Positions 4,177-27,540 of a stretch of 33,115 nt of DNA are shown here, piece after piece. Numbering within the stretch: the stretch's first letter is position 1; each line of letters opens with the position of its first letter. The stretch is taken from NCBI GenBank assembly GCA_029977045.1, contig JAPOLP010000001.1, positions 1 through 33,115 of the forward strand, written 5' to 3'. The DNA comes from Planctomycetota bacterium. Lineage in GTDB: Bacteria > Planctomycetota > Planctomycetia > Planctomycetales > Planctomycetaceae. A program made the translations under genes and the position numbers. The notes under the pieces were generated by a model. That model ran no database searches, had not been told where the DNA came from, and saw nothing but the letters and a program-made list of their open reading frames with translations.

Positions 4177-4618
4177 CGTGTGATGAACTGAGATCGAAAA
4201 GCGACGGCGGATTGTGCTCGCCTGCCGGATGAGTCACCCGAGTCACAGTCGCGTCCATGCATAGCGACAGCGGCAAGGTCGTATTCCTGCACTGCCCGTG
4301 AGCTATATCTGAACTGCTCTGGTGTCGGTTAAGCACCAGATAATCAGCCTCATTGGCGTTATCGCCCAGGTCCCAATCCCGGACTGGCTTGATGACCGAT
4401 GTGCCCAAGCAACGGTGATACCGCCAATCAGGAGGCAAAATCAGCACGCCAATGTGCGACTGCTCCGTCTGGCACCGAAAATTCTTCAAGTTTCCCAGGG
4501 TGTCTGTCGATTTGCGTAAAGTGGGCACCGCACTGGGGACTTGAGTATGCGCATTTGCAGAGCAGGAAATACGTTCGGAAACAGCCGCCGGACGCTGTTT
4601 TCGTCGTTATCCACGAGC

Positions 4619-6085: not shown

Positions 6086-6190
6086 TATCTCGAAGCACAC
6101 CCCGGTGCTTTGAGACTGCTCCTGGCCGACTCATTCGATTCCCGCTGCTGGACGCCAATCTTCGGCGCCCGGTTACGATTGAGGTGTGAA

Positions 6191-9100
6191 ATGCGACTGC
6201 GCACGTGGCTTGACGGCGTATTGAACAGACTTTCCACGTGGTGGCAGCCCGCCCGTCGACGATTTCGCAGAAACTACCTGTCTGCAACTGCGCCTCAATA
6301 TCTTGAACCTCGCCTGTTACTGACAATCGACAATCTCGCCTCAATCAGTGGAGTCGTTTACGACGACCTGACCGACAATGGCCTGACTGGCGATGACATA
6401 CGACAGCAGAACGTGCAGGTCGAACTCTTTCAGGACGGCGGTAACGGGACGTTCGATTCCGGAACCGGAGACGACACGTCGCTGGGAACGCTGATGACAG
6501 ACGCTTCCGGCGAGTATCTGTTTGAACGGCTGCAGGCCGGCCGCTACTTCGTGCAGCAGAGTGCGATCGGCGGTCTCATTCAGCGGTCCGGCGACGACGT
6601 CGCCACGATTGACATCTCCGGCACAGACGCGGAAGGCGTGGTCGGGACAATCATCGACAGGTTCGATGATCCGGATCCGCCTCCAGATCCTCCACAGGGA
6701 GCGTCAGCCTCTTCCGCTGGCTCACTGATTGGCTCATCCTCAGTCAGCACGATGGAAGTCATCGGTGGCGAGCGAGACCTCACGATCAAACTGACGTCCG
6801 CCACTGGCGGCGTGTCGCTGAATGTCAACGCCTTCAATCTGGAACTGCTCGAATTCAATTCGAGCACCACCGGGGGAGGCCGAGGGACGGTCGTGTGGGA
6901 CGGCACTGACAGCGACCCACTGACGCTCGACCCAACGGGACTCGGAGGGATCGATCTGACCGGCGGCGGAGCCAGTGACGGCTTCCGACTGACAGCGGGG
7001 GTCGACCAGAACGGCGTGACCGTCACCGTGCGGGTTCACACCGACGCCACGAGTTACTCGGAAGGCACGTGGACCGTCACGAATACCGGCGGAGGCAGTA
7101 TCGACGCTCTGTACATCCCGTTTGCGGACTTTGTGCAGGGCGCCACGGCCACTGCTCAGGTCGATTTCGCGAACGTCGGCGCGATCGAAATGCAGATCAA
7201 CGGCGTGATCGCTGCCGACGGCCAGTTCGGTGAATTCTCGACCCTGGGCCCGAACATCACCACCGCCAACTTCGCGAACTTCCAGCCACTGAGCCTCGGC
7301 AACCTGGTCTGGGACGACATCAACAACAACGGCGTTTTTGATTCCGGCACCGAAAGCGGAATCCCGGATGTCACCGTCGAACTCTACGCGGACACCGACA
7401 GCAACGGAGCGTTTACTCCAGGCACCGACACGCTTCTGACATCGACCACGACCGACGGAAGCGGCGGGTACCTGTTCTCGAATCTGTTTCCCGGTGACTA
7501 CGTTCTGAGGATTCCTCAGTCAGAGTTTGAACCTGGAGGTGATCTGGAAGAACTCTCCGCGAGCAGCTCCGGCAACGATCCAGCTCCCGACCCCGACACA
7601 GATATCAACAACGACGACAACGGGACGCTGCTGGCAGGCCAGGGCGCAGTCACTCAGGCCGTAACGCTCCTGGCGAATTCTGAACCGGCTAACGACGGTG
7701 ACGCCGACACGGACAGCAACCTCGCCGTCGACTTCGGTTTCTTCCAGCCGATCGACCTGCAGATCACGAAGGCCGACTCCGCCGACCCGGTCAACGCTAG
7801 CGCAGCCTTCTTCTACACACTGACCGTCACGAATAACGGCCCCGAAACAGCAACCGGCGTCGTGGCCACTGACGTTCTCCCCGCCGGGCTCACTTACGTC
7901 TCCAGTTCAGTAACTCAGGGGACCGTCAGCGAATCTGGCGGCACCGTCACGGCTTCCATTGGAACGCTGGCACTCGGCGCATCAGCAAACGTCACGATCA
8001 ACGTCACCGCCGACGCCAGCACGTCGGGCACAGTGATCAACAACGCGTCAATCACTGGCGACCAATTCGATGTCGACGCGTCCAACAACACGACGAACGA
8101 ACCAACGACCGTGACTCCGGTCGTCGATCTTTCGATCACGAAATCAGACAACCCCGACCCGGTCGACTCCGGAGCAACGCTTGCCTACACGATCGTGGTG
8201 ACGAACAACGGGCCGTCGACGGCAACCGGGGTCGTCATGACCGACACGCTGCCGGCAGGCGTCACCTTCACGTCCGCCAGTACGACAAACGGTACCGTCG
8301 GCGCGGCAGGCAATATCGTGACGGCCAACCTGGGCACTCTGGCAAGCGGTGCTTCAGCCACCATCCTCGTCAACGTCCGAGTCGACGATTCGACGCTCGG
8401 TTCGATCCTCAACACTGCCGTTGTCACAGCGAACGAGACCGAACTCAACCTCGCGAACAATACGGCAAACGAGCCGACGCTGGTCAATCCGCTGGTGGAT
8501 GTGAGCGTCGTCAAGTCCGACGACATCGATCCGGTGAGTGCCGGTTCTCAGCTGACCTACACGCTGGTCGTCTCGAATTCCGGCCCCTCGACCGCCACTG
8601 GTGTCACTCTGACCGACATTCTGCCGGCGGGCGTCAGCTTCAGTTCCGGAAGCGCGACGCAGGGCTCCGTCAGTGAGTCGATGGGCACGATCACCGCGAC
8701 ACTCGGAACACTCGCGTCGGGCGACAGCGAAACCATCACCGTTGTCGTCGACGTCGCGGACACAACGTCGGGGACAATACTCAACACGGCTTCAGTCACG
8801 ACGAATGAGCCGGACTCGAATCTAGCGAATAATACGGCCAACGAGCCGACGACCGTTGTTCCGGTCATCGATCTTGAAGTCACCAAGTCAGACAACCCGG
8901 ACCCGGTGAACGCCGGCGGAACACTGACCTACACGGTGCTCGTCACGAACAACGGCCCGTCACCGGCGACGAACGTCATGCTGACCGACGCTCTGCCGGG
9001 CGAGGTTTCGTTTGATTCAGCGACTCCGAGCCAGGGGACCGTGTCCGAATCCGGTGGCACCGTTACGGCAAGTCTCGGCTCGCTCGCGAGCGGTGCGTCA

Positions 9101-12100
9101 GCGACAGTGACCATTATCGCCACCGTCGCGGACTCGGCCCTGGGCACAATTACGAACACAGCATCCGTCGTCGCCACCGAGATGGAGACCAACACCGCCA
9201 ATAACGTCGACACTGAGCCGACGACGGTCACGCCGGTCATCGACCTTTCCATCACCAAATCCGATGACGTCGATCCCGTCGATGCCGGCGGGACTCTGGT
9301 CTACACGCTGACAATCGCGAACGCGGGGCCATCGACAGCGACCGGCGTCACGGTCACCGACGTTCTACCGCCCGAAGTGACCTTCAGCTCGTCAACGGCG
9401 AGCCTGGGATCGAGCAGCGAGTCCGGCGGAACGATCACGACAGACATCGGCACCCTGGCCAGTGGAGCGTCGGCGACCGTCACGATCACCGTCTCCGTGG
9501 CTGGTACCGCGATCGGCACCTTCACAAACAACGCTACGGTAATCGGCAACGAAACGGACATCGCTCCGGCGAATAACTCGACGTCTGAGGACACAACGGT
9601 GCGCCCCGTCGTCGATGTTCGGATCGACAAAACGGACAGTGCCGACCCCGTCAACGCAGGCGGATCGTTCAGCTACACGCTGACAGTGGTCAACGATGGT
9701 CCGTCGACAGCGACGAACGTCGTCGTGACGGACAATCTTCCCGCCGGAGTCACGTTCGATTCCGGCACATCCAGCCAGGGAACAGTCAGCGAATCATCCG
9801 GAACGGTAACGGCAAACCTGGGCACGCTGGCCAGCGGAGCGTCAGCCACGATCACGCTGAACGTCGACGTCGACGACTCGACAACCGGCACGTTGACGAA
9901 CACGGCAACCGTGACTTCGACGGAGCACGACGAGGACCCGTCGAACAACCGCGACACCGAACCGACGACGGTGACGCCGGTCGTCGATCTGGTCGTGATC
10001 AAGTCCGACAGCGCCGACCCGGTCAACGCGGGCGGTTCCTACGCTTACACGCTGCTCGTGACGAACAACGGGCCATCAACCGCGACCGGAGTCGTCGTGA
10101 CTGACCTGCTGCCAGCCGAAGTCGCGTTTGACTCCGGCTCAACCAGCCAGGGAATCGTCAGCGAATCGGCGGGGACCGTGACCGCTTTAGTAGGCACACT
10201 CGCCAGCGGTGCGTCGGCGACGATCACGTTAAACGTGACAGCCGCCGATTCCGCACGGGGAACAATTACGAACACTGCGACCGTCGTCGGAAACGAAACC
10301 GAAACAAACACGGCGAACAACCAGGACACCGAACCGACGACGATCATTCCGGTCGTTGATCTGGCAATTGCCAAGGCCGACTCGGTGGACCCTGCCGAGG
10401 CCGGCGGCGCGCTGACTTACACACTGACTGTCACCAACAACGGACCGTCGACCGCGACCGGCGTCATGGTGACGGACCTGCTGCCGTCTGAAGTGTCATT
10501 TGTCTCGGCAGTCGCCAGTCAGGGTTCCGTGAGCGAATCCGGCGGGAACGTCTCCGCGGACCTCGGCACGCTTCTCAGCGGTGCGACCGCCACCGTCACG
10601 CTCAACGTGACGATTTCCGACTCTGCACTGGGCGTCATCACGAACACGGCATCCGTAACCGGAAACGAAACGGAAACGAATACATCGAACAACTCAGCAA
10701 CCGAGCCGACGACCGTGACGCCGGTTGTCGACGTCCAGGTCACGAAGGTTGACGATGTTGACCCGGTGAACGCGGGCGGAGTCGTGACCTACACGCTGCT
10801 CGTCAGAAATAACGGTCCGTCAACGGCGACCGGAGTGATTGTCACGGACACGCTTCCGGCAGGTGTCACATACCGTTCGAGCAGTTCCACTCAGGGCAGC
10901 GTGACGTCTTCCAACGGAGTCGTGACGGCCAACGTGGGCACGCTGGCCAACGGCGCACAGGCGACGATTCTGCTGGCGGTCGACATTGATGCCTCAACGA
11001 CAGGCACGATTACAAACACTGTCACAGTGACCACAAATGAGCCGGACCCGGATCCCGAAAACAATACCGACGACGAAGAAACGACGGTGAACCCGGTCGT
11101 CGACCTGGCCATCACCAAGACAGACAACGTTGATTCCGTCATGCCGGGCGACTCTTTCGTTTACACGCTGCTGGTGACGAACAACGGGCCGTCGACTGCG
11201 ACTGGCGTCGTCGTGACCGACCTGCTGCCTGCGGACATCTCCTTCGTGTCCGGCTCGACTTCGCAAGGTTCGGTGACAGAGTCAAACGGTGCGGTGACCG
11301 CTTCTCTCGGCGACCTGGCGAACGGCGAGTCCGTGACGCTGACACTGACAGTCTCGGTTGGAACCACGGCGAGCGGCACGCTCACCAACACCGCAACGGT
11401 GGCCGCGAGCGAGGACGAAACCGACACCTCGAACAACTCGGACTCGGAATCGACGCCGGTCATTCCGCCTGCGTTGTCGACTCTGGCGGGCGTCGTCTAC
11501 ATCGACAGCAACGGCAACGGCCAGTTCGACAGCGGTGACACTGGACTCTCGGGAGTTCCGGTTTCCCTGATCCCGATCGACGCGTCCGGCAGCGTGCAGG
11601 GAACGGCGATCACACAGGAGACTGACGCGAACGGCGCGTACCTCTTTGAAGACCTGCCTGCGGGCCGATACCGAGTCGTTGAAACTCAGCCTGCCGGTTT
11701 CAGCCAGGGCTCTGAAACGATCGGTACCGCTGGCGGCAGTAATCCGGTTTCCAACGTCATCGACACGATCAATCTGGGCGACGATGTCGACGCGACGAAC
11801 TACAACTTCGGCGAAGCGATGCCGTCCAAGCGACGTTTCCTGGCCTCGTCCGGCTCGACGCCCACAATGAATGGCGCGACGACGCAGGCTGCTTTGTCGG
11901 GACGCGTCTACTCAGATGCCAACAGCAACGCGATGTTTGACTCGGGAGAAAGCGCACTTGCGGGAGTCACTGTTTCACTCGTGCCGATCAATGACTCGGG
12001 CCAGGCGATTGGCTCGGCGTTAATCGCGGTGACCGATTCGTTCGGTGTTTATCGCTTTGCCGAAGTCCTGCCCGGCAGGTACCGCCTTGTCGAAACTCAA

Positions 12101-12241
12101 TCACAGACGCACGCTCAGGGAATCGATCTCGTGGGATCAGCCGGCGGAATTAACTCCGGTTTGTCGGACGACACGATCGACGCCATCGTTCTCGCTTCTG
12201 GGATCGTGGCGACGGGGTACGACTTCGCTGAGGGAAGCTAA
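6191..12241 (+). CDS. Giant surface protein (2,016 aa): SdrD-B-like x2, unassigned beta module, DUF11 repeat x10, SdrD-B-like x2
   Basis: ORF 6110..12241 starts at a TTG. The ATG at 6191 is preceded by GAGG (6181-6184) and is preferred. N-terminus MRLRTWLDGVLNRLSTWWQPARRRFRRNYLSATAPQYLEPRLLLT. SdrD-B/Cna-B-like modules: VVYDDLTDNG...YLFERLQAGRYFV, LVWDDINNNGVFDSG...YLFSNLFPGDYVL, VVYIDSNGNGQFDSGD...YLFEDLPAGRYRVVE and RVYSDANSNAMFDSGE...YRFAEVLPGRYRLVE. Ten DUF11 units follow the consensus DPV.AGG.L.YTL.VTNNGPSTATGV.VTD.LP..V.F.S....QG.VSESGG.VTA.LGTLASGASAT. Confidence 0.9.
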   Translation: MRLRTWLDGVLNRLSTWWQPARRRFRRNYLSATAPQYLEPRLLLTIDNLASISGVVYDDLTDNGLTGDDIRQQNVQVELFQDGGNGTFDSGTGDDTSLGTLMTDASGEYLFERLQAGRYFVQQSAIGGLIQRSGDDVATIDISGTDAEGVVGTIIDRFDDPDPPPDPPQGASASSAGSLIGSSSVSTMEVIGGERDLTIKLTSATGGVSLNVNAFNLELLEFNSSTTGGGRGTVVWDGTDSDPLTLDPTGLGGIDLTGGGASDGFRLTAGVDQNGVTVTVRVHTDATSYSEGTWTVTNTGGGSIDALYIPFADFVQGATATAQVDFANVGAIEMQINGVIAADGQFGEFSTLGPNITTANFANFQPLSLGNLVWDDINNNGVFDSGTESGIPDVTVELYADTDSNGAFTPGTDTLLTSTTTDGSGGYLFSNLFPGDYVLRIPQSEFEPGGDLEELSASSSGNDPAPDPDTDINNDDNGTLLAGQGAVTQAVTLLANSEPANDGDADTDSNLAVDFGFFQPIDLQITKADSADPVNASAAFFYTLTVTNNGPETATGVVATDVLPAGLTYVSSSVTQGTVSESGGTVTASIGTLALGASANVTINVTADASTSGTVINNASITGDQFDVDASNNTTNEPTTVTPVVDLSITKSDNPDPVDSGATLAYTIVVTNNGPSTATGVVMTDTLPAGVTFTSASTTNGTVGAAGNIVTANLGTLASGASATILVNVRVDDSTLGSILNTAVVTANETELNLANNTANEPTLVNPLVDVSVVKSDDIDPVSAGSQLTYTLVVSNSGPSTATGVTLTDILPAGVSFSSGSATQGSVSESMGTITATLGTLASGDSETITVVVDVADTTSGTILNTASVTTNEPDSNLANNTANEPTTVVPVIDLEVTKSDNPDPVNAGGTLTYTVLVTNNGPSPATNVMLTDALPGEVSFDSATPSQGTVSESGGTVTASLGSLASGASATVTIIATVADSALGTITNTASVVATEMETNTANNVDTEPTTVTPVIDLSITKSDDVDPVDAGGTLVYTLTIANAGPSTATGVTVTDVLPPEVTFSSSTASLGSSSESGGTITTDIGTLASGASATVTITVSVAGTAIGTFTNNATVIGNETDIAPANNSTSEDTTVRPVVDVRIDKTDSADPVNAGGSFSYTLTVVNDGPSTATNVVVTDNLPAGVTFDSGTSSQGTVSESSGTVTANLGTLASGASATITLNVDVDDSTTGTLTNTATVTSTEHDEDPSNNRDTEPTTVTPVVDLVVIKSDSADPVNAGGSYAYTLLVTNNGPSTATGVVVTDLLPAEVAFDSGSTSQGIVSESAGTVTALVGTLASGASATITLNVTAADSARGTITNTATVVGNETETNTANNQDTEPTTIIPVVDLAIAKADSVDPAEAGGALTYTLTVTNNGPSTATGVMVTDLLPSEVSFVSAVASQGSVSESGGNVSADLGTLLSGATATVTLNVTISDSALGVITNTASVTGNETETNTSNNSATEPTTVTPVVDVQVTKVDDVDPVNAGGVVTYTLLVRNNGPSTATGVIVTDTLPAGVTYRSSSSTQGSVTSSNGVVTANVGTLANGAQATILLAVDIDASTTGTITNTVTVTTNEPDPDPENNTDDEETTVNPVVDLAITKTDNVDSVMPGDSFVYTLLVTNNGPSTATGVVVTDLLPADISFVSGSTSQGSVTESNGAVTASLGDLANGESVTLTLTVSVGTTASGTLTNTATVAASEDETDTSNNSDSESTPVIPPALSTLAGVVYIDSNGNGQFDSGDTGLSGVPVSLIPIDASGSVQGTAITQETDANGAYLFEDLPAGRYRVVETQPAGFSQGSETIGTAGGSNPVSNVIDTINLGDDVDATNYNFGEAMPSKRRFLASSGSTPTMNGATTQAALSGRVYSDANSNAMFDSGESALAGVTVSLVPINDSGQAIGSALIAVTDSFGVYRFAEVLPGRYRLVETQSQTHAQGIDLVGSAGGINSGLSDDTIDAIVLASGIVATGYDFAEGS
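7751..11470 (+). repeat. Tandem coding repeat: 10 units of exactly 372 bp (124 codons, DUF11 domain)
   Basis: Each unit runs from (I/V)D(L/V)..(T/K)K.D to ..EPTTVTPV and contains 124 residues, with no indels between units. The period is also visible as minus-strand shadow ORFs spaced exactly 372 nt apart (8185, 8557, 8929, 9301, 9673, 10045). Confidence 0.95.
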
Positions 12242-15200
12242 TCAGCGTTCTTCAGGCCCAATCGAAGCAGTGTTCAGCAGAATGCGATTCGGGCCATTTA
12301 TTGCAGCGAAGATGTCGAGATCGCCATCACCGTCCAGGTCTGCAAGAGCCGCATGGAACGTTTTGGAGTCGTCCAGAAGACGCTGAGGATTGCTGAAGAC
12401 TCCCTTGCCGTCGTTTCGCCAGATCGCGCTGACACCTTTGTTGCAGGTGATGATGTCGGGATGCCCATCCTGATCGACGTCGCCCGGCACGATCGAAATC
12501 GATATTTCTGTGTCGAACAACTGGCCGCTGTCGGTGAAGTTTGCCTTTCCGTCGTTCAGCCAGACTCGATTGAAGCCCATGTTGGCGGCAACCGCGTCCA
12601 GGTCGCCGTCGCCATCGACATCGAACAATGCTCCGACCTCGCTGCAACTCCCGCCGAGTAGCTGGTCCGTGTTCTCGAAGTTGCCCTGGCCGTCGTTCAG
12701 GTAGACGCAGTTCGGCTCGAACTTGTCTTCGCCACCGTTGAAGACGAACAGGTCCTCGTCACCGTCGTTATCAAGATCGTCGGCGGCCACTCCGTAGCTG
12801 CTGAAGTCTCCGAGTGCCTGGCCGCTGTCGGTGAACATGCCTTTGCCGTCGTTCAAATACACGCGGTTCGCTTTGCCGTACCAGTAGTTGGCGACAACGG
12901 CGTCCAGATCGCCGTCGGCATCGAAATCACGCAGAACGATGTCCTTGGTGCCGGATGTTCCCAGCGACTGGCCGCTGTCCTGAAACACACCGCGGCCTTC
13001 GTTGATGTAGACCGCGTTTGGTTCGCCATTCACGTTTCCGATGAAAACATCGAGGTCACCGTCGCCGTCCAGATCGCCCAGTGCCGCACTATGACTTCGC
13101 GAGTTGCCGAGTCTCTGGCCGCTGTCGGTGAACACGCCTTTCCCGTCATTCCACCAGACAGTGTCAGGGGCCTTGTAGTTGGCGACGAAGGCGTCCTGAT
13201 CGCCATCGTCATCGAGATCCGCCATGAGGACTCGCGTGCTGAGACTGCCGCCGAGCAACTGCCCGGAGTCGGCGAACGTTCGCGGGGACGACGTCTCTGG
13301 CTGCTCCAGATTGACCCAACGCGCGGACGCGATCGTTCCGTGGTGGTCGTTGCCGGAGGCATCTTCAAGACGGTCACCCTGCCCCTCATCAAAGTGGTAC
13401 AGCGCCAGGGTCTGATCGTCAGATTCAAAGCTCACGTTAGGCTCGAAGTTGCCCGTGTAGCGAGCCGTCGACGAAAGCAGGAATTCATCCATCCAGCCAC
13501 GGAAGTGGAACTCCATCCTCTCTTCATGCGGATGCGCACCTAGCCACAGGCCTTTCGGCTCAGTCTCGTCCTTCATGGCAACTTGCCGATGACTCCACGC
13601 CTGAACGCCGTTGACAAAGAGACGTACATCATTCGAGCCGGACACGATCGCAATGTGAGCCCATTGGTCAGGAACGTACCTGAGCACTTCGGGTTTCAGA
13701 TTTGGCAGGGCATCCGCCCGTGACAGTCGCCAGTCCTTGTCGATCGCCGTGAACGTGTCGCCCTTGGCGGCGGCCGTCAGCTGCAGGACAGAGTCGCCCG
13801 ACAATTTTGCGATCACACCGACTGCTCGCATCTTTGCGGGACGCACCCAGGCTTCCATTGTCAGCGGTTCGTTGCCGGAGCGTGACAACGTCGGGATATC
13901 CACGTACGACCTGGAGCCGTCGAATTCCAGGGCTCCGCCCGTGTTTCGCACGTAATTCGGTCGGACGATCTGTGCGACCTGTGGCGGAGTCTTTGTCTGG
14001 CTGATCGTGACGAGAGTCTGTTCGTCTTTTGAGACGACAACCGTGTCGTCTTTCAGGCTCAGCTGATGGTCGCCGCCGCGCAGTTTCAGCTGATACTTCC
14101 CTGCTTCGACGCGAACCTGCCAGTCATTGTCAGGACCGAGCACCGCGACGACGTTCCCGTCCTGCTCCACCTCGACTTCAATGTTTGCGTCCTTCGCGGC
14201 CTCGACAATGACTTCACCGTACGGCGTTTGGATGCGGACGACCGAAAACGCGACTGCGGCGACCGCCAGCAGTGCCAGCCCGATTGCTGCAAAGCGGGTC
14301 CGACGAGTCCGGGATGTTCGCGGTCGAAGTTTCTCTGCAGAGCCAACCTCGTCTGAATCTGCTAAGGCCCGATCAAGTGCCTCAGCCAGTTCCGCTGCGG
14401 ACTGAAAACGATCGCCCCTGTCATGCGCCATTGCCTTCAGACAGACAGCCTCAAGCGAGGGCGAAACCGCGGCGATCTGCGACGGTGGGGCCGGACGTTC
14501 TCCCGAAGAGATCTGTCCCAGGACGGACAGGCCGGCGCCTTCAAATGGCCGGCGGTCGGTCAGCAACTGGTAGAGAATCACTCCCAGAGCATACACATCG
14601 GTTTGCGGTCCGATTTTGTCGTGAGCGGCTTCGACCTGTTCGGGGGCCATGTACGCGGGGCTGCCGATGATGACTCCGCTGTGCGTGAGTTCGGCTTCAG
14701 CGACCGCGTCGCGTGAGGCGAGGCCGAAGTCCATCACGACGGGCTCGCCCTTAGCGTTCAGAAGAATATTCGACGGCTTCAGGTCGCGGTGAATGATGCC
14801 TTCGTCGTGAGCGGCCTGAACCGCTCGCGCAGTCATCGCAACAACGCGCACAGCGTCCGCCTGTGACAGAGAAGCGCCGGTCAGACTCTGACCTTCGACA
14901 TAGGCCATCGTCAGGTAGTGCTGGCCGTCAATTTCACCGACGTCGTACACCGGGCACAGGTGCGGGTGATGCAGCGTGGCCATCGAACGGGCTTCGCGGC
15001 GGAACCGTTCAATCGCGATCTTGCGGATGTCGGGCCGGTCCTCGAAGCCGGGAAACTTGATCGCGATCTTTCGGTCGAGATCGGGATCGTAGGCGAGGTA
15101 CACGCTGCCCATGCCGCCTTGCCCCAGAAGTTGCCGCAGCTCGTAGCGGCCAAACCGGCATGGCAGTTCAACGCTGCTCTGCCCGGATGCTTCAGCCGGT

Positions 15201-15724
15201 CGGAATTTCGGCGTAACGATCGTCTCGTCCAGCGGCGAGTCGTCCGCCGGCGCCTCTGATTCAGCGTGAGGCAGCTCCAGCGATTCAGTATCGAAGTTCT
15301 CGATAGTGACCGTGGCTTCCGAACTCACCATGTCTGGCAGTCCGGCAAACACGTCCTCGACGATCGCCGTGTAAGTTAGAAAGCGGTTAAGAAACTCAGC
15401 AGCAGCAACCGGCTGGCCGGACCTTCTCTGAAAAGTCAGCAGCGTTTCCAGCAGCTCACGAAAGAGTGTCGGCTGCAGCGAGGCACCTGCCCGCTTCAGA
15501 CAGGTTTCGATGGACAGACGCTGTCCGGACGCCAGCGCACCCTCGAATTCAACGCAGAGTTCATCAATCTGCTCGATCTGATCCGTCGAGAGTTCGGCAT
15601 ACTCTTGATCGTTCATCTGAGTTCTGATTCGTCGCCTGTGGTCCTTTGTCTGCGTGTTCGGCGCAGAGCGGCTGTTTGACGCTGCCCCTTTAACACTTTC
15701 CGCGTCAAGAACCGGACAGCTCAT
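12242..15724 (-). CDS. Receptor Ser/Thr protein kinase with LamG-like and 7-blade FG-GAP/VCBS propeller ectodomain
   Basis: Hanks kinase motifs GQGGMGSVY, IAIK, HRDLKPSNIL, DFGLA and SPAYMAPE (about 14375-15145). Single TM helix FAAIGLALLAVAAVAFSVV (about 14237-14296). LamG/concanavalin-like body ALEFDGSRSYVDIP...WAHIAIV...FRGWMDEFLL (about 13445-13942). Seven DxDxDGxxD blades (about 12275-13282). The ATG at 15724 overlaps the sigma stop (ATGA); an alternative ATG at 15616 (MNDQEYAELS...) cannot be excluded. Stop TGA at 12244-12242. Confidence 0.9.
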   Translation of the reverse strand: MSCPVLDAESVKGAASNSRSAPNTQTKDHRRRIRTQMNDQEYAELSTDQIEQIDELCVEFEGALASGQRLSIETCLKRAGASLQPTLFRELLETLLTFQRRSGQPVAAAEFLNRFLTYTAIVEDVFAGLPDMVSSEATVTIENFDTESLELPHAESEAPADDSPLDETIVTPKFRPAEASGQSSVELPCRFGRYELRQLLGQGGMGSVYLAYDPDLDRKIAIKFPGFEDRPDIRKIAIERFRREARSMATLHHPHLCPVYDVGEIDGQHYLTMAYVEGQSLTGASLSQADAVRVVAMTARAVQAAHDEGIIHRDLKPSNILLNAKGEPVVMDFGLASRDAVAEAELTHSGVIIGSPAYMAPEQVEAAHDKIGPQTDVYALGVILYQLLTDRRPFEGAGLSVLGQISSGERPAPPSQIAAVSPSLEAVCLKAMAHDRGDRFQSAAELAEALDRALADSDEVGSAEKLRPRTSRTRRTRFAAIGLALLAVAAVAFSVVRIQTPYGEVIVEAAKDANIEVEVEQDGNVVAVLGPDNDWQVRVEAGKYQLKLRGGDHQLSLKDDTVVVSKDEQTLVTISQTKTPPQVAQIVRPNYVRNTGGALEFDGSRSYVDIPTLSRSGNEPLTMEAWVRPAKMRAVGVIAKLSGDSVLQLTAAAKGDTFTAIDKDWRLSRADALPNLKPEVLRYVPDQWAHIAIVSGSNDVRLFVNGVQAWSHRQVAMKDETEPKGLWLGAHPHEERMEFHFRGWMDEFLLSSTARYTGNFEPNVSFESDDQTLALYHFDEGQGDRLEDASGNDHHGTIASARWVNLEQPETSSPRTFADSGQLLGGSLSTRVLMADLDDDGDQDAFVANYKAPDTVWWNDGKGVFTDSGQRLGNSRSHSAALGDLDGDGDLDVFIGNVNGEPNAVYINEGRGVFQDSGQSLGTSGTKDIVLRDFDADGDLDAVVANYWYGKANRVYLNDGKGMFTDSGQALGDFSSYGVAADDLDNDGDEDLFVFNGGEDKFEPNCVYLNDGQGNFENTDQLLGGSCSEVGALFDVDGDGDLDAVAANMGFNRVWLNDGKANFTDSGQLFDTEISISIVPGDVDQDGHPDIITCNKGVSAIWRNDGKGVFSNPQRLLDDSKTFHAALADLDGDGDLDIFAAINGPNRILLNTASIGPEER

Positions 15725-16326
15725 GCCTGGTCTTCTTCGACGACCTGCCAGTTTCTGCGGATCAGCTCGACGCGGCGGCGGATCGTGCGGTCCGAGCAGC
15801 CGAGATGTTCAGCGATTTCGACGTCGGTGTAGCCCTCGATCTTGAGTCGGGCGATTTCCTGCAGCTCGGGGCCAAGCCCTTCGACGAGCTGTCCGCACAG
15901 ATCGACGAACTCGGCCGAGTACTCCAGAGTCGGCTCGCGAGCCGGCAGGCTGCCAATCACAGAGCGGTGGCTCGTCGTGATAAAAACGCTGTCAGTCGCG
16001 GTCCGACGAATGTCTCGCTGCTCGCGTTTTTCGTAGCGGTGCCGGTTGGAAATCTTGTTTGACGTGATCGTCAACAGCAGCCGCCACAGGCTGGTGCGGT
16101 CATTCAGATCGGGATACCGGCCCGCTGACACGCCGGCACACAAAGCGTGAAACGCACTTTGAGCGGCATCCTGCTCGTCGTAAGTCCGGGCAACTCGCCT
16201 GTTGAGCTTCTTCCTGGCGGCCTCATACAGCCGCTGTACGAAGTGCTCCCAGAGCTTTCGCGCAGACGACTCGTCGCCCTGCTGCAGGCCTTCAATCCAG
16301 ACCGAGACTGGTTCGTCGCTGTCCAT
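15721..16326 (-). CDS. ECF-type sigma-70 family RNA polymerase sigma factor (kinase-associated type)
   Basis: ORF 15721..16332 starts at a TTG; ATG at 16326 (MDSDEPVSVWIEGLQQGDESSARKLWEHF...). Sigma-2-like region DEQDAAQSAFHALCAGV...LWRLLLTITSNKISNRHR. Sigma-4 HTH LQEIARLKIEGYTDVEIAEHLGCSDRTIRRRVELIRRNW. No anti-sigma-like ORF is adjacent; the downstream gene is the kinase. Confidence 0.9.
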   Translation of the reverse strand: MDSDEPVSVWIEGLQQGDESSARKLWEHFVQRLYEAARKKLNRRVARTYDEQDAAQSAFHALCAGVSAGRYPDLNDRTSLWRLLLTITSNKISNRHRYEKREQRDIRRTATDSVFITTSHRSVIGSLPAREPTLEYSAEFVDLCGQLVEGLGPELQEIARLKIEGYTDVEIAEHLGCSDRTIRRRVELIRRNWQVVEEDQA

Positions 16327-16680
16327 AGGCAAATGCCGGCTCGAAATGGTGCGATGTCAGGCAAACGCGACAGCTTCATGGCTGCGCATGTCTCGCACGC
16401 TGATGGCGTGAGTCTGCCACATCATTGCGAAGCAATTTCGATGCGTCTGCGGTTCGTCTGTTCTGTGGACTGCCGCAGCGTTTTGCATCGCTGTTGCAGA
16501 GTGCCGCAGAAATCTGCGGAAATCCTGTCCGGGATCGGAGGCTGACGGTGTTTAGGGATTTGAGGCGGACTCGCTTGCGAGTCTCTGTTCAGGGATCGTT
16601 CAGATCTGTCAGTTCGCGCGGCAAGCGAGCGGCAGGCGTCACCGTCACCTGCATTTCCATTTTTTGATCCCGAGGAATCC
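16327..16680. promoter_or_regulatory. 354-bp divergent control region between the ECF sigma gene and the mega-adhesin
   Basis: TGCCGCAG occurs at 16471-16478 and 16502-16509. Palindrome CCGCAG-AAAT-CTGCGG at 16504-16519. Hairpin GACTCG-CTTG-CGAGTC at 16567-16582. A 9-bp inverted repeat CTCGCTTGC (16570-16578) / GCAAGCGAG (16621-16629). Phased GTTCAG, GTTCAG, GTCAG at 16587, 16598 and 16608. GAGGA sits 5-6 nt before the ATG at 16681. I could not call any promoter hexamers confidently. Confidence 0.4.
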
Positions 16681-18585
16681 ATGCTCCGAAAATCTTTCCG
16701 TATCCGCGATCTGATGGCCTCAAAATTCCGCAAGAACCGCCTGGCCCGGTCGCTGAAAAGCCGACGCCCACGCCGTCAGGCCGCCGCGGCCATGGAGAGC
16801 CTGGAAGCTCGCCAGCTACTGACCACACTGTCACTCAGTGATGCCTCGGTCACTGAAGGCGACAACCTCGAATTTGTCGTCTCACTCAGCAGCGCGGTCG
16901 CTCACGATACAGTCGTCAGCTACTCGACAGCTGGTGGTTCGGCCAACAGCAGCGATTACACCGCAGCCAGTGGCTCGATCACGATCTCGGCCGGCGACAC
17001 AAGCGGCACGATCACCGTCGCGACAACGGACGACAGCACGGTCGAACTCGACGAGACGCTCAGTCTGAACGTCACTGGAGTGTCGGGCACGAATGACGTC
17101 TCAATCAGCGACGGGACCGGTGCAGGCACGATTGAAAACGATGACGTTATGTCTGTCACCGTTGATGACGCGACCGTTTTGGAAGGTGGCAACCTGGAAT
17201 TCGCAGTCACGCTCAGCAATCCGGTCGATGTGGATACAGTCCTCACGTACTCAACCGGTGACGGTTCCGCAACGACCGCCGACAGCGACTACACCGGCCA
17301 GGCGGCTCAGACAATCACGATCTCTGCGGGCGACACCAGCGGCACAATCACAGTTGCCACGACGGACGACAACAAGGTCGAACTGGATGAGACTGTCAGC
17401 ATCTCGCTCGACGGCGTCGATGCGGGTGGCCGCGAAGCAGCAACCGCTGTCGGCGGAATCCTGTATCAGAACGACTTTGAATCGCCCAACGGGTTTGTCG
17501 ACAACACAGGACGCGACGTCAGCCTCCAGTCGGTGAACTCGCTCTACGGTCAGCCCGGCTTCCTGTTCCAGCAGATCTTCACCGTCGAGACACTCGAAAT
17601 TAATGGCACCGCAGCGTTTGGCGGCGGCTATCAGGATCCGTCCGGCACCGGCGGCAACTATGCCATCGGCATGCTCTCGCACGTTCAGAATGATCATCTC
17701 TCGCTGACGTTTGACGCGGGAACTAACGCGTTTCTGAACTTTGGAATCGATGTCTCGCATATCGATCTCGACGGTGTCGGCGGGCCGTTTGGCCCTGAGC
17801 CAGGCATCGCCCCTGTGTTCGACTTCCGTCTGTACGACAGCCCCAGCGGGAGCTTCAACATCTCCTCCCCGGGCACGCTGCTGGACTCGGCGCAGATCAC
17901 GGGCACCAGCTCCGCACGGAACACGTTTGACTGGACCAGTCATGTGCTCGGCCTGTCCACCGCAAGAAGCACGGACGGCAACGTCTCGCTGGTCGTCGAT
18001 CTGGTTCAGGGCGGATACGCGGCATTCGATAACCTGGTCGTCGCGGCATCGAATACCCAGGGGAGCCTCGACAATGGTGCCACAGGCACGATCCTCAATG
18101 ACGACAGCGCGACGGTTACGGTCGACGATGCGTCGGTGACCGAAGGCGGCAGCCTGCAATTCAACGTCTCGTTGAGCAACCCGGTCGATGTCGCCACGGT
18201 CATCAACTACTCGACGGCAGACGGTTCGGCCACGACGGCTGACAGCGACTACACCGGCGGCAGTGGCTCGATCACGATCGCTGCCGGTCTGACCAGCGGC
18301 ACGATCACTGTCGCCACGACGGACGACAATACCGTCGAACTGGACGAAGTGATGAGCCTTGACGTGGTGCTTGCGGACTCTAGTGACCGCGATGTGACAT
18401 TCCCGCAGGTCGGTGCCAACATCGTCTTTGAAGATACGTTCGACAGCGAGTCGGTCGGCGTCGGCTACACATCGCTTACCAACTGGGCCGTGACGTCCGG
18501 AAATGTGGATGTGATCGGAGACGGGTACCACAATATCTATCCGGGCAACGGGCGTTATCTCGACATGGATGGCTATGTCAATTGA
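16681..18585 (+). CDS. Calx-beta domain surface protein (N-terminal 634 codons of an interrupted mega-adhesin frame)
   Basis: ATG at 16681 with an upstream GAGGA. Leader MLRKSFRIRDLMASKFRKNRLARSLKSRRPRRQAAAAMESLEARQLLT. Three Calx-beta modules (e.g. VTVDDATVLEGGNLEFAVTLSNPVDVDTVLTYSTGDGSATTADSDYTG...ITISAGDTSGTITVATTDDNKVELDET). One unassigned lectin-like module. The first half of a DUF642-like jelly-roll (NWAVTSGNVDVIGDGYHNIYPGNGRYLDMDG) is cut by TGA at 18583-18585. Confidence 0.8.
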   Translation: MLRKSFRIRDLMASKFRKNRLARSLKSRRPRRQAAAAMESLEARQLLTTLSLSDASVTEGDNLEFVVSLSSAVAHDTVVSYSTAGGSANSSDYTAASGSITISAGDTSGTITVATTDDSTVELDETLSLNVTGVSGTNDVSISDGTGAGTIENDDVMSVTVDDATVLEGGNLEFAVTLSNPVDVDTVLTYSTGDGSATTADSDYTGQAAQTITISAGDTSGTITVATTDDNKVELDETVSISLDGVDAGGREAATAVGGILYQNDFESPNGFVDNTGRDVSLQSVNSLYGQPGFLFQQIFTVETLEINGTAAFGGGYQDPSGTGGNYAIGMLSHVQNDHLSLTFDAGTNAFLNFGIDVSHIDLDGVGGPFGPEPGIAPVFDFRLYDSPSGSFNISSPGTLLDSAQITGTSSARNTFDWTSHVLGLSTARSTDGNVSLVVDLVQGGYAAFDNLVVAASNTQGSLDNGATGTILNDDSATVTVDDASVTEGGSLQFNVSLSNPVDVATVINYSTADGSATTADSDYTGGSGSITIAAGLTSGTITVATTDDNTVELDEVMSLDVVLADSSDRDVTFPQVGANIVFEDTFDSESVGVGYTSLTNWAVTSGNVDVIGDGYHNIYPGNGRYLDMDGYVN

Positions 18586-18819
18586 ACGATCCAGTCTGAT
18601 CCACTGACACTCAGTCCTGGCGTCTACGAACTGTCATTTGAAATCGGCAACAACACGTTTGGGGGCAACGGCCTGCTGGTTTCGCTTGGTTCCACATTTG
18701 TCGAACACTTCCCTGCGAGTTCGACGCTCACTCCGATCGTTCGAACGATTACCGTCACAGAGGCGACAACTGCCTCACTGGTCTTTGAAGAAACGGGGCC
18801 GTCTGACAAGGGCGGCAGT

Positions 18820-21800
18820 GTGCTGGATGATGTGCGGCTCATTCAGGTTGCGGGCGCGGGAAGCCTCACCAGCCAGAGCACCGGCACGATCGAGAACGAC
18901 GACAGCGCGACGGTTTCGATCGGTGATGCATCGGTCGTCGAAGGCGGTAACCTGGAGTTTAACGTCTCGCTGAGTAACCCGGTCGATGTCGCCACGGTCA
19001 TCAACTACTCGACCGCAGACGGCACTGCCACAACGGCAGACAGCGACTACACCGGCGGCAGTGGCTCGATCACTATCCCTGCTGGCCAGACCAGCGGCAC
19101 GATTTCCGTCGCCACGACCGGCGACAACACCGTCGAACTGGACGAAACGCTGAGTCTGAATCTGACGGCGGTCAGTGCCAGCGGACGCACCGTCTCGATC
19201 GACGACGGCACGGGTACAGGCACGATCGAGGACAATGACAGTGCAAGCCTTTCGATCGATGACGTGGTCATCACGGAAGGCGACAGCGGGACGACGACGG
19301 CAACCTTCACCGTAACCCTGAACAACGCTGTGGATACCGGCGTGAGCGTGAAGTTCGACGTGGCCGACGGCACTGCCACTGAGGCGGACGGTGATTACTC
19401 CGCAGGCAACTCCTTCGGCACCGGCGGTCTCGTCTTCGGTGGAGTAGACGCAGCACGTGGCGGTGCAACGAGCATGGCGGATGGCTACCTGATGGCGAAT
19501 ATCCGCGCGGATATCTCGGCCAATTCGCCAGCTGCGACCTTCACCAGTTCCAACACGCTGACACCGGCGTACCTCGACACTATTGATGTGCTGTTCGTGT
19601 CGAGCTGGCCGACAGTCGTGACGCTGAGTGCCGCGGAGCAGGCAGCCGTGGCGGACTTCGTACAGAACGGCGGCGGGACCATCATCTGGGGCGAGAACGA
19701 CGGGTGGGCGGGGGGAGCATCCGACATCTCGAACGAAAGCCTGATCGATCCGTTCCTGATGGATATCACAGGCACGCTGGGCGGCGGTCAGACTGTGACG
19801 GTAACTGACCCTTCCGCTCATATCGTCACCGATGGTCCCTTCGGAACCGTGACTTCGTTCGGACTCAGTTGGCCCGGATGGTTCAACAACCTTGGCCCGT
19901 ACGCCACCACGCTGGGAACGCTGAATGCCAACGGGCAGTCGGCTCTGGCAGTGATCGATCCCGGGGCGATTAATCCCGGCAGCGGTGGCGTGGTTCTGAT
20001 TTCCGATGGCAACGGCACCAGCGGTGCTCCACAGGTACGGACCCTGATTCTCAACTCGCTGTCCTTTGTGTCCACATCAGCTCCGGACACGTTGAACTTC
20101 TCCGGCGCAGCGGGCGAGACGCAAACTATCGAGGTGGAAATCAACGGCGACAACACGGTGGAGTTGGACGAGAACTTCTTCGTCAATCTTTCCAACCTGG
20201 ATGCGAATGGCCGAAACGTTACGCTGGCTGATAGCCAGGGCGAAGGCACGATCGGGAACGACGACAGCACGACGGTTTCGATCGGCGATGCATCTGTCGT
20301 GGAAGGCGGCAACCTGGAGTTCAACGTCACGCTGAGCAACCCGGTCGATGTCGACACAGTCATCAACTACTCGACGGCTGATGGCACTGCCACGACGGCA
20401 GACAATGACTATACCGGACAGACCGGCGTGCCGCTGACTCCGGCGAACATCACCGCCAGCACATCGCTCGCACCGCTCGGAAGCTTCACTGTCAACGAGA
20501 TCGTTGACGGGACCACAGCGGATGGGTCGCCGTTTAATGGTTTTGCGACCAATACGAATGTCGAATCGGGGACGATTACGCTGGACCTCGACGGAGACTT
20601 CGATCTGACGAAGTTCACCATCTGGAATGACATCAATGTCGGAGGCCAAGGGATCGAGAACTTCCGACTCGATTTCTACGCCTCAGCAAATGCCCTGATT
20701 TCGTCAACGGCGACACTGACAGCCGTCTCACAGGTCGCGGCTCAGGAGTATGCCTTCCCGACTGTCTCCGGTGTCAGCCGCGTCGATCTGGTGGTGCTGA
20801 GTTCCTACGACGGTGGCGGATACAACCGCATCGAAATCCGTGAAGTGATGCTGGAAGGTACTTCGAGCGTCACTGGGCTGACGATCCCGGCCGGTCAGAC
20901 CAGCGGCACGATCACTGTCGCCACGACGGACGACAACAAGGTCGAACTCGATGAGACGCTCGACGTAATTCTCGGCACTGTTGACGCCAGCAATCGTGAC
21001 GTCACCGCAGGTGCTGTTGGCGGAGTCGCGTTTTCTGAGTTCGATGCGTTCGACAGTACGACCGCAACGCAGTTTTTGACCGGTTCACTCGGCGACGTCC
21101 CGTTTTCAATGACGTTTGACGACGGCAATGTCGGAGCCTGGGGCGTCCGTGGCCGATACTCCACGTTCGACAACACATCCACTTCCTTCAACACTTCGAA
21201 CTTCACGCCGGCAACAAGCGGCCTCGACATGCTTTCCGGGGTCCATTTCGGTCAGAACGTCGGCGGAACGCTGACGATCGAGTTCGAGGCTCCTGTCGAG
21301 AATCCCACATTCCACTTCGTGCAGCTGGATGGAGCGGCTTGGGACTTCGGCCCGACGCCGGGCTTCACGTCGCTCACGAAACTCAGCGGAACGAGCGACA
21401 TCACCATTTCCGGCTCACTGTTGCGTGACAACAACGGCGCAAACGACCCCGGAATCTACGGCAGCATCCAGCTCGACGGCACGTTCTCAACCGTCGTCGT
21501 TTCGCTGGTTCCAATCACAACACGCGGTGACGGCTACTGCTTCCAGATGTCCGGCGCTGCAGCTGCGAGAGGCTCAGCTACCGGCACGATCTTGAACGAC
21601 GACTACGCTCCAGTTGCCAACAACGACACGAACCAGATTGACGAGCTGTTTGGGGTGGTTGATTCGACGAGCAACAACATCTCGGGCAACGTGCTGCTGG
21701 ATGTCGATCATCTCGATGGCTATGCAGACGTCGCCGACACCGATGCCGATAACGGAACGGCCGGACTTTCGGTCGCGGACGTTGACGGCAATGCAATCTC

Positions 21801-27534: not shown

Positions 27535-27540
27535 GGTCGC

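Follow-up and report, generated by a model that had tools for sequence, protein, structure and literature searches.

The closest described systems are the ECF43 pairs EcfP/PknT of Vibrio parahaemolyticus and EcfK/PknS of Xanthomonas citri. Kinase-linked groups of planctomycetes, ECF59–ECF62 and ECF217, were reportedly described by Jogler in 2012 and by Casas-Pastor in 2021. In the planctomycete groups, the sigma factor is co-encoded with a kinase, the DAED-like motif is kept, and a nearby Ser is the proposed phosphosite (PMC7826278, PMC8999054, PMC8103513); for ECF59/60, a Ser switch has been proposed (PMC8103513). [quoted passage not shown]

The locus studied here lies in a 33,115-nucleotide stretch of planctomycete DNA, hereafter the window, and was compared with about 50 related loci (41 non-redundant ones and further loci from metagenomes). 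It is a genuine planctomycete gene pair, consisting of an alternative sigma factor and a membrane receptor kinase, and an ordinary representative of an already recognised class. The receptor kinase most likely switches on its partner sigma factor. As in EcfP/PknT and EcfK/PknS, the ECF sigma gene is paired with that of a transmembrane Hanks kinase and not with an anti-sigma gene, and a phosphate in sigma region 2.2 is proposed to act as the switch by supplying a negative charge for core binding. The window kinase also resembles PknS, which carries an 83-aa N-terminal helical extension ahead of the kinase domain (PMC13147305). However, the window pair is planctomycete, whereas the two ECF43 pairs are proteobacterial; its sigma factor keeps the DxxD charges; its candidate residue, a Ser, occupies the position of the “QE” Glu, whereas ECF43 has a Thr within the DAED position; and its sensor consists of a LamG module and an FG-GAP propeller instead of periplasmic TPRs.

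Gene layout and the receptor kinase

The kinase stop (12242) abuts the stop of the DUF11 gene (12241), and the ATG codons of the sigma gene (16326) and the divergent gene (16681) face each other across 354 bp, both as the original prediction had it (Table 1). The predicted absence of an adjacent anti-sigma gene was borne out by comparison with L005, the closest relative (sigma 91% identical), and by inspection of the adjacent ORFs, among which no anti-sigma-like ORF was found. The intergenic region holds a single ORF of at least 100 aa (16422–16733, minus strand), which crosses a 1-nt indel relative to L005. Other genes of the window are of the DUF1501, PSCyt/PSD, and BBP7 types.

Table 1. Coordinates of the sigma/kinase locus and its flanking features in the window.
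Feature	Position	Strand	Basis or remark
DUF11/SdrD_B giant extracellular protein gene	6110..12241	+	Convergent with kinase; leader motif
Receptor Ser/Thr kinase gene	12242..15616	-	Probable CDS from Met37, 1124 aa
Seven-bladed FG-GAP/VCBS beta-propeller	12245..13309	-	Pfam, loops, AF2, Foldseek
Extracytoplasmic LamG-like module, residues 602-754	13463..13921	-	Laminin_G_3 PF13385, E 1e-12
Single transmembrane helix, residues 478-496	14237..14293	-	Hydropathy scan
Hanks-type catalytic domain	14345..15145	-	Pkinase, E 4e-41
2.36-kb core common to L005	14385..16740	.	Single blastn block, 81% identity
N-terminal cytoplasmic helical module (N-dom), ~95 aa	15332..15616	-	Relatives, AF2
Spacer, sigma stop to probable kinase start	15617..15720	-	104 nt
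ECF sigma gene	15721..16326	-	201 aa, start MDSDEPVSVW, stop TGA 15721-15723
Sigma2-sigma4 linker T109-A-T111-D-S113	15988..16002	-	Family consensus RRTxTDSVF, alignment
Sigma region 2.2 motif D50-E-Q-D53-A-A-Q-S57	16156..16179	-	Alignment of relatives
Divergent intergenic region	16327..16680	.	354 bp, ~82% identical to L005 counterpart
Divergent giant extracellular protein frame	16681..23658	+	Candidate target gene of sigma

The two genes had been described as coupled through an ATGA overlap. This sequence is literally present at 15724–15721, and the maximal kinase ORF (12242–15724, minus strand) reaches ATG 15724; however, this ATG is probably not the kinase start. Conservation with the L005 kinase starts only at Met37 (MND...), and the preceding stretch from the sigma stop has diverged, with low identity and a 19-nt indel. 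The spacer is open in the kinase frame yet not conserved, and nine homologous kinases start exactly at the conserved N-terminal module. Because conservation among the relatives begins there, Met37 (ATG 15616), located 104 nt past the sigma stop, was taken as the probable start. The spacer showed no terminator-like site.

HMM searches returned all four families expected at the locus, namely Sigma70_ECF, Pkinase, Laminin_G_3, and FG-GAP. All five Hanks motifs of the catalytic domain are intact (Gly-rich loop GQGGMGSV 201, IAIK 220 with the VAIK-type Lys, HRDLKPSN 312, DFG 332, and APE 360), and the kinase matches PknB/StkP structures with E-values of 1e-46 to 1e-49. The anticipated single transmembrane helix was recovered, and its topology was assigned as N-in/C-out from the Arg-rich N-terminal (cytoplasmic) flank. 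The expected ectodomain, a LamG module followed by seven blades, was likewise confirmed by Pfam (FG-GAP_3 six times plus FG-GAP; FG-GAP_3 E 1.5e-45), and all seven DxDxDGxxD loops were found exactly, with a period of 47–52 aa: DLDDDGDQD 836, DLDGDGDLD 884, DFDADGDLD 933, DLDNDGDED 983, DVDGDGDLD 1035, DVDQDGHPD 1082, and DLDGDGDLD 1129. Ca binding by these loops is predicted from the motif. The AF2 model of the propeller (pLDDT 92, 28 strands) had CRTAC1 as its best PDB match in Foldseek (9etn_A, E 3e-15, TM 0.80); integrin alpha chains also matched (TM ~0.6), in keeping with the integrin-alpha-like propeller that had been suggested. With the CRTAC1, integrin-alpha, and PVL-lectin propellers it shares seven blades of four strands, each bearing a DxDxDG loop of the Ca-binding type. 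Unlike these, the window propeller forms part of the extracytoplasmic sensor in a bacterial receptor kinase and has a LamG module ahead of it.

With moderate confidence, we propose that the locus is a planctomycete signaling cassette coupling a Ser/Thr kinase to an ECF sigma factor in the following way. A ligand (protein or glycan, probably Ca-dependent) would bind the LamG/propeller ectodomain and activate the kinase, which, recruited via its N-terminal module, would phosphorylate the sigma factor. The most likely phosphosite would be Ser57, which takes the place of the core-binding Glu in “DxxDxxQE,” the canonical sigma2.2 motif, and the linker patch T109/T111/S113 may provide a second one. 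The added negative charge would enable the sigma factor to bind the RNA polymerase core and to transcribe its regulon. More tentatively, the regulon may include the divergent giant gene at 16681, because genes of this leader class are overrepresented directly beside such cassettes and because its 5′ end and promoter region were inherited together with the sigma-kinase core.

Giant extracellular protein genes next to the pair

The genome relatives all belonged to Planctomycetota (42/42), and across the related loci the sigma gene nearly always adjoins a kinase gene. The predicted linkage without an anti-sigma factor is strongly conserved, with 32/35 sigma-adjacent kinases being of the same partner type. 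The sensor part of these kinases varies freely and includes TPR, WD40, LamG, FG-GAP, and STAND/FGE.

The divergent frame encodes a Planc_extracel-type leader and LapA, Calx-beta, cadherin-like, PKD, and RTX elements. It had been taken for a Calx-beta/RTX mega-adhesin gene; the reading frame is in fact broken and consists of two same-frame ORFs (16681–18585 and 18820–23658) split by an in-frame TGA at 18583–18585. This in-frame stop in the candidate target counts against the proposed mechanism.

The core shared with L005 comprises 20 codons from the start of the divergent secreted-protein gene, the whole intergenic region, the sigma gene, and the N-dom and catalytic domain of the kinase; beyond it, the sequences of the two loci are unrelated. 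The intergenic region had neither an Rfam match nor a sigma-70-like promoter match. A shared −35/−10 dyad or other common promoter motif was not detectable in 39 upstream regions, and thus no sigma target could be predicted from sequence.

Genes with a Planc_extracel-type leader made up 7 of the 71 immediate neighbours versus 5 of the 245 others (odds ratio 5.3, p = 0.007; computed with the window excluded). This enrichment argues against a second explanation, which we regard as quite possible though not probable, namely that the cassette works as proposed while its position between giant adhesin genes is coincidental and its regulon lies elsewhere in the genome. Such a coincidence would agree with the absence of a leader-bearing extracellular neighbour in 34/41 related loci and with the heterogeneity of the other neighbours (Collar-domain genes, PSCyt/PSD with DUF1501, and unknowns), but not with the position of true homologues of the Calx-beta protein, which adjoin related sigma genes both in L037 (divergent, 601 bp) and in L050 (directly downstream of the kinase). 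The conservation of the 5′ end of the divergent gene along with the cassette in L005 also speaks against it, whereas the convergent orientation of the DUF11 gene, the missing common promoter motif, and the general abundance of giant genes in the flanks (about 9 in roughly 650 kb) speak for it. No evidence of a regulatory linkage of the DUF11 gene to the pair was found. Adjacency of targets is possible in systems of this type, as EcfK has target genes next to ecfK (T6SS).

As to conservation of the neighbourhood, leader genes are enriched next to the pairs, and about 83% of the loci lack them. Control of the neighbouring adhesins, as originally envisaged, is weakly supported: it has the enrichment on its side, and against it the small share of loci concerned (about 17%), the absent promoter motif, and the convergent DUF11 gene. 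A connection between the pair and the giant surface-protein genes beside it is suggested but not proven. The idea that a Ca-propeller senses and Ca-adhesins respond is weakly supported: the giant-neighbour loci L040, L042, and L050 have TPR kinases, and only L012 among such loci has an FG-GAP kinase like that of the window. Large leader-protein neighbours are not tied to propeller sensors.

The N-terminal kinase module and the sigma factor

The proposed mechanism assigns the recruitment of the kinase to N-dom, for which no Pfam or NCBIfam match and no significant PDB sequence match was obtained. Its AF2 model is all-helical (pLDDT 87) and had no significant PDB fold match (best E = 2, TM below 0.42). 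The N-dom profile matched 20,819 representative proteins, and all of the long ones (47/47) were kinases. The module was present in 32/35 sigma-adjacent versus 2/9 non-adjacent kinases (Fisher p 1e-4); seen from the kinase side, 3/3 N-dom kinases adjoin a PF07638 sigma gene, and one LamG kinase without the module does not. Judged by these sequence comparisons, N-dom is a hallmark of sigma-partnered kinases. The profile did not match PDB chain 9eed_A (364 residues, entry “Kinase domain protein”) even at E <= 10; because of its 364-residue length, this chain probably represents the PknS(1-364) construct. N-dom shows no resemblance to known sigma-binding folds, which counts against the proposal.

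It is unlikely that N-dom is a built-in anti-sigma domain holding the sigma factor at the membrane and releasing it upon kinase activation, in which case phosphorylation would not act simply by adding a charge for core binding. In favour of this reading, N-dom goes closely with sigma-adjacent kinases and, like class I anti-sigma domains, forms the cytoplasmic N-terminal part of a protein that crosses the membrane once; however, no such similarity was found in sequence (Pfam, NCBIfam, PDB) or fold, since no Pfam or NCBIfam anti-sigma model matched and the confident AF2 model retrieved no PDB anti-sigma structure. Retention of the DxxD charges would suit a factor that needs restraint rather than activation, whereas an invariant Ser in place of the “QE” Glu points to a charge switch, as in the mechanism we favour.

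The sigma ORF matched PF07638 Sigma70_ECF (E 5e-29, residues 6-197) and TIGR02937 (E 9e-14), and thus is of the group 4 type, with sigma2 and sigma4 domains only. Its N-terminus is kept in >40 relatives. In region 2.2, D50, D53, and S57 are invariant among 24 aligned relatives, and Ser occurs at position 57 in 46/46 unique relatives. An hhalign comparison with E. coli RpoE, which checks the register of the motif, aligned S57 to the Glu of VVQEAF; Ser57 thus occupies the position of the canonical “QE” Glu and is a candidate phospho-switch residue. Because the DxxD charges are retained, the unphosphorylated sigma factor may not be fully inactive, a point against the proposed switch. By analogy only with EcfK, whose linker has demonstrated phosphosites (PMC13147305), T109/T111/S113 of the linker may be another candidate patch for phosphorylation.

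Judged by motif and gene context, the sigma factor fits the planctomycete kinase-linked groups (ECF59-like). It shares with ECF59–ECF62 and ECF217 the planctomycete origin, the conserved neighbouring Ser/Thr kinase without an anti-sigma factor, and the DAED-like charges with a conserved Ser near the motif (DEQDAAQS); a cluster look-up connected it to none of the reference accessions of ECF59/61/62/217. The ECF43 assignment of the original prediction was not supported. Membership in ECF43 with a mechanism exactly like that of EcfP/PknT, phospho-Thr replacing the missing DAED charges, is very improbable: the co-encoded Hanks kinase (104 nt downstream) without an anti-sigma gene, the group 4 architecture, and the PF07638-type lineage are common to both, and a single origin has been reported for kinase-regulated ECFs (PMC7671368), but the uncharged QTTA/STTA with its Thr is absent, the motif reads DEQD, whose two Asp are invariant among 24 relatives, and contains no Thr, and the related NCBIfam model TIGR02999 scored 25 bits against a cut-off of 126.

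Implications for planctomycete signaling

A more far-reaching version of the proposal, which we consider rather improbable, is that the 2.36-kb core is a reusable cassette, with different sensor ectodomains and extracellular protein bodies recombined onto its two ends. N-dom, found in >20,000 representative proteins and only in kinases, would then be a dedicated sigma-docking domain, phospho-Ser at the “QE” position would represent a second, mechanistically distinct sigma phospho-switch, and the LamG/propeller sensor of the window would monitor the cell surface or the giant protein under its control.

Activation of an ECF sigma factor by a kinase has been demonstrated only in the two proteobacterial ECF43 pairs, whereas the much larger planctomycete kinase-linked groups are known from genome context alone. 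The locus and its relatives offer three handles on these groups. In the sigma factor, the core-binding Glu position of sigma2.2 is taken by an invariant Ser; in the kinase, an N-terminal module that is widespread yet unannotated goes along with sigma partnership; and the pairs show a statistically detectable tendency to adjoin giant, leader-bearing extracellular protein genes. If the link to the divergent gene is true, it would be a first clue to the regulation of the very large surface proteins of planctomycetes.

Organization of the sigma–kinase pair and its flanks

The window represents a full metagenomic contig of 33,115 bp with planctomycete gene content (DUF1501, PSCyt1/PSCyt2/PSD1, and BBP7). 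HMM searches matched all domain families named in the original prediction. Two models matched the sigma product, Pfam Sigma70_ECF (PF07638, E 5e-29) and TIGR02937, which covers ECF sigma factors in general; the kinase matched Pkinase (E 4e-41), Laminin_G_3 (residues 602–754, E 1e-12), and FG-GAP_3/FG-GAP repeats (E 1.5e-45). All Hanks catalytic motifs of the kinase were intact, and the seven loop strings quoted for it were found exactly, at residues 836, 884, 933, 983, 1035, 1082, and 1129. The single membrane helix corresponded to one hydrophobic helix (residues 478–496); the Arg-rich stretch N-terminal to it places the kinase domain in the cytoplasm and the C-terminus outside. As described before, the pair abutted the convergent DUF11/SdrD_B gene, with the two stops touching at 12242 and 12241, and was separated by 354 bp from the divergent Calx-beta gene (ATG codons at 16326 and 16681).

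Features of the window discussed in the text
Feature	Coordinates	Strand	Description
Lone DUF1501 gene	2830–4176		second DUF1501 gene
BBP7 gene	4541–6085	+	putative beta-barrel porin
DUF11/SdrD_B giant gene	6110–12241	+	convergent with the kinase gene
Kinase maximal ORF	12242–15724	-	1160 aa
Conserved core	14385–16740		aligned to 568–2941 of L005
N-terminal kinase module	15332–15616	-	kinase residues 37–131
Met37 codon	15616–15614	-	probable kinase start
ATGA	15724–15721	-	overlap of sigma stop and maximal kinase ORF
Sigma ORF	15721–16326	-	201 aa
Imperfect palindrome	16499–16524		divergent intergenic region
YTAAAYVCC site	16547–16555	-	CTAAACACC
Calx-beta/cadherin/RTX frame	16681–23658	+	divergent from the sigma gene
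Leader region	16681–16830	+	basic stretch and (E)xLExRxLL[ST]
First ORF of the frame	16681–18585	+	634 aa
In-frame TGA	18583–18585	+	splits the frame
Second ORF of the frame	18820–23658	+	1612 aa
PSCyt1/PSCyt2/PSD1 + DUF1501 pair	26059–29973		typical planctomycete gene pair

The ATGA proposed to couple the two genes was present; however, a kinase start at this position is unlikely, as the relatives point to Met37. In L005, the closest related locus, the sigma factor was 91% and the cytoplasmic part of the kinase 78% identical to those of the window. Protein conservation of the kinases began exactly at MND… (Met37), and the DNA between the sigma stop and this codon was poorly conserved, with a 19-nt indel that would break the reading frame. 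In addition, the conserved N-terminal module of homologous kinases begins no more than a few residues from their start Met, and nine homologous kinases aligned position 1 to position 1 with it. Judging from these alignments, the kinase probably starts at Met37 rather than at the ATG that overlaps the sigma stop, and the two genes would therefore lie 104 nt apart. No terminator-like site was found in this spacer, and the genes are most likely still co-transcribed. A search of 15500–16800 against Rfam gave no match.

The divergent gene had been described as one mega-adhesin. The region holds two ORFs in one frame, split by a single in-frame TGA. The TGA is followed by 78 stop-free codons, and the second ORF is devoid of its own leader. 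The GC3 of the 234-nt stretch past the TGA (0.59) was intermediate between coding (0.74) and intergenic (0.54) values, and no Pfam domain spanning the TGA was found. It could represent a nonsense mutation (pseudogene), a sequencing or assembly error, read-through, or two separate genes.

Conserved core and variable sensors

The pair was compared with 11 metagenome and 42 species-representative genome loci, all from Planctomycetota. The window and L005 shared one sharp-edged block of 2.36 kb with 81% nucleotide identity, beyond which no homology was detected. One edge of this core lay just after the kinase catalytic domain, and the sensor ectodomains beyond it were unrelated. The other edge fell after the first 20 codons of the divergent secreted-protein gene, beyond which the protein bodies were unrelated. 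Across the related loci, the sigma factor and the cytoplasmic kinase half stayed constant, and the sensor half varied freely. The sensors comprised TPR (L008, L011, L025, L040, L042, L049, and L050), WD40 (L007), LamG alone (L006), STAND NTPase with FGE-sulfatase (L036 and L055), and FG-GAP (the window, L009, L012, L013, and the kinase-anchored loci L001, with kinase P0040, and L002, with kinase P0009). The sigma factors of the two kinase-anchored loci were more distant from that of the window.

A search of 5.8 billion proteins found no close full-length orthologue of the window kinase; the best matches other than itself showed 43–53% identity and covered less than half its length. In Planctomycetota, FG-GAP repeats are commonly found on kinases, in a few cases together with LamG (proteins P0020, P0040, and P0100). 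The exact sensor combination of the window is new and built from common modules. The propeller was modelled with a pLDDT of 92, its 28 strands forming seven four-stranded blades. Its best PDB match was the Ca-binding propeller of CRTAC1 (E 3e-15, TM 0.80), followed by ITFG2, LGI1-EPTP, PVL lectin, and integrin alpha chains. Thus, the earlier description of the ectodomain as integrin-alpha-like is fair at the fold level.

Neighbouring genes as candidate targets

The Calx-beta giant of the window and the divergent gene of L005 begin with a basic stretch followed by LExRxLLT, the "Planctomycete extracellular" motif, and the DUF11 protein likewise has this leader. The match of PF07595 to the L005 product was weak (19.3 bits, under the 25.5-bit cut-off); in the two window giants and the other loci, the pattern was identified by regular expression. 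The form (E)xLExRxLL[ST] after a basic stretch opened all giant neighbours (the window, L012, L017, L019, L037, L042, L046, and L050). To our knowledge, the role of this motif in secretion or processing is uncharacterised.

Leader genes accounted for 7/71 immediate neighbours of the pair versus 5/245 farther genes in 41 related loci, a non-redundant set from which the window was left out (odds ratio 5.3, p 0.007); counting the window as well gave 9/73 and 5/257. Homologues of the window Calx-beta protein were located divergent from the sigma gene at 601 bp in L037 (2652 aa, E 3e-301) and directly downstream of the kinase gene in L050 (1859 aa, E 4e-226). A Calx-beta/cadherin/malectin giant of >4200 aa lay upstream of and divergent from the sigma gene in L012, and a 1559-aa leader protein was encoded divergently at 173 bp in L019. 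The association of the pair with genes of leader-bearing extracellular proteins is real and concerns a minority (~17%) of loci. It extends to such proteins in general and was specific neither to Ca-binding adhesins nor to propeller sensors, as had been suggested; the kinases of L040, L042, and L050 have TPR sensors, not propellers.

The divergent giant gene would be a plausible target of the sigma factor. The adjacency of adhesins to the pair may instead be coincidental, which concerns the target step only; we consider this a serious possibility, albeit the less probable one, given the neighbour counts on one side and the minority of loci on the other. The DUF11 gene is convergent, and its sole tie to the cassette is proximity. 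The BBP7 gene lies 24 nt upstream of it on the same strand, and the two look like an operon for a porin and a giant surface protein. Gene pairs similar to the PSCyt1/PSCyt2/PSD1 and DUF1501 pair of the window adjoin related sigma genes in L009 and L011. In L007 (10948–12943), three small phage-tail-collar genes (PF07484 Collar) lie in tandem after the sigma gene, a candidate regulon of quite a different kind.

A shared ECF-type promoter was sought by dyad enumeration (5-mer/14–19 nt/4-mer) in 39 non-redundant upstream regions and rejected: the best dyad occurred in 6 sequences versus 4–6 in shuffles. The best 7-mers did not exceed shuffled sequences, and a blastn-short comparison of the window intergenic region with its counterparts in L012, L019, L037, and L050 returned chance words only. 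No common promoter motif was extracted; therefore, no sequence-based target prediction was made. The motif YTAAAYVCC occurred in 5/39 regions (L005, L009, L012, L013, and L019; shuffle mean 0.94), 170–290 nt upstream of the sigma start, and once in the window. It was present in three of the four regions with FG-GAP kinases (L009, L012, and L013); L005, whose own sensor is PD40-like in appearance, represented the window in this set. The motif was chosen by eye, post hoc, so that its significance is overstated and it was not counted as evidence. The imperfect palindrome (GAGTGCCGCAGA / TCTGCGGAAATC; core CCGCAGAAATCTGCGG) was conserved in L005, had no Rfam match, and could serve as an operator or form a 5'-UTR hairpin.

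Kinase module, sigma2.2 motif, and proposed mechanism

The N-terminal module of the kinase is helical and ~95 aa long (AF2 pLDDT 87). It matched no Pfam or NCBIfam model and had no significant PDB match in sequence or fold, including any anti-sigma domain; a hidden anti-sigma domain in the kinase N-terminus was rejected on these grounds. A profile search of 1.84 billion representatives recovered 20,819 proteins with the module (E ≤ 1e-3), nearly always at the N-terminus and in some cases in 2–4 tandem copies. All of the scanned long proteins (47/47) were protein kinases with varied C-terminal modules. In sigma-anchored loci, the module was carried by 32/35 kinases located ≤500 bp from the sigma gene versus 2/9 farther ones (Fisher p 1e-4), and these two were the only kinases near their sigma genes. 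In kinase-anchored loci, module-bearing kinases adjoined a PF07638 sigma gene in 3/3 cases, and one module-less LamG kinase did not. Two kinases flank the sigma gene in L030, L032, and L048, the upstream LamG kinase being without the module and the downstream kinase with it, an arrangement suggesting that a single sigma factor may integrate two inputs or be reached through a kinase relay.

PknS, a characterised ECF43 partner, likewise carries an N-terminal helical extension, of 83 residues and unknown role (PMC13147305). No sequence similarity was detected between the module and PDB chain 9eed_A, a chain of 364 residues and hence probably the PknS(1–364) construct. We infer that the kinase recognises its sigma factor through the module. 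Its presence beside the sigma gene would also suit a tether acting in an anti-sigma manner; given the database results, we consider such a role unlikely.

The original prediction assigned the pair to ECF43, a group defined by a co-occurring Hanks kinase and a sigma2.2 region that has lost its negatively charged DAED/DxxD motif; the motif is replaced there by QTTA/STTA, with the phosphorylated Thr in 88% of members (PMC13147305; PMC8999054). An alignment of 24 relatives (29–91% identity) gave the sigma2.2 consensus Y-D-E-[EQ]-D-A-A-x-S-A-F with invariant D50, D53, and S57. Since D50 and D53 are kept, the ECF43 assignment was rejected, and a true ECF43 Thr switch is contradicted by this motif and highly improbable. 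The position of S57 was Ser in 46/46 unique relatives recovered from the loci. In a profile comparison with Escherichia coli RpoE, D50 and D53 aligned with the two RpoE Asp residues, and S57 aligned with the Glu of VVQEAF. As aligned, this sigma family has an invariant Ser in place of the conserved Glu of "DxxDxxQE" that binds the core. According to reviews, the other kinase-linked ECF groups, mostly planctomycete, keep a DAED-like motif and have Ser/Thr close to it; for ECF59/60, the phosphosite has been proposed to be a Ser (PMC8999054; PMC8103513; PMC7826278). The pattern seen here agrees with this account; a cluster-accession look-up for a link with the ECF59 reference protein returned nothing. 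The sigma2–sigma4 linker contains a semi-conserved RRTxTDSVF patch (T109, T111, and S113), which recalls the linker phosphosites demonstrated for EcfK (PMC13147305). A PDB profile search with the sigma family matched an HTH fragment only.

On balance, we lean towards a mechanism in which a signal would bind the LamG/propeller ectodomain and activate the kinase, which would phosphorylate the sigma factor at S57 and possibly in the linker, enabling it to bind the RNA polymerase core. The pair belongs to a recognised planctomycete class of kinase-linked ECF sigma factors, described so far from genome context alone. Four by-products, all candidate and testable, are of more interest: a Ser that does not vary at the "QE" position, a large family of N-terminal kinase modules that lacks annotation and follows sigma partnership, a conserved core whose ends are swapped, and an enrichment of leader genes among the immediate neighbours.
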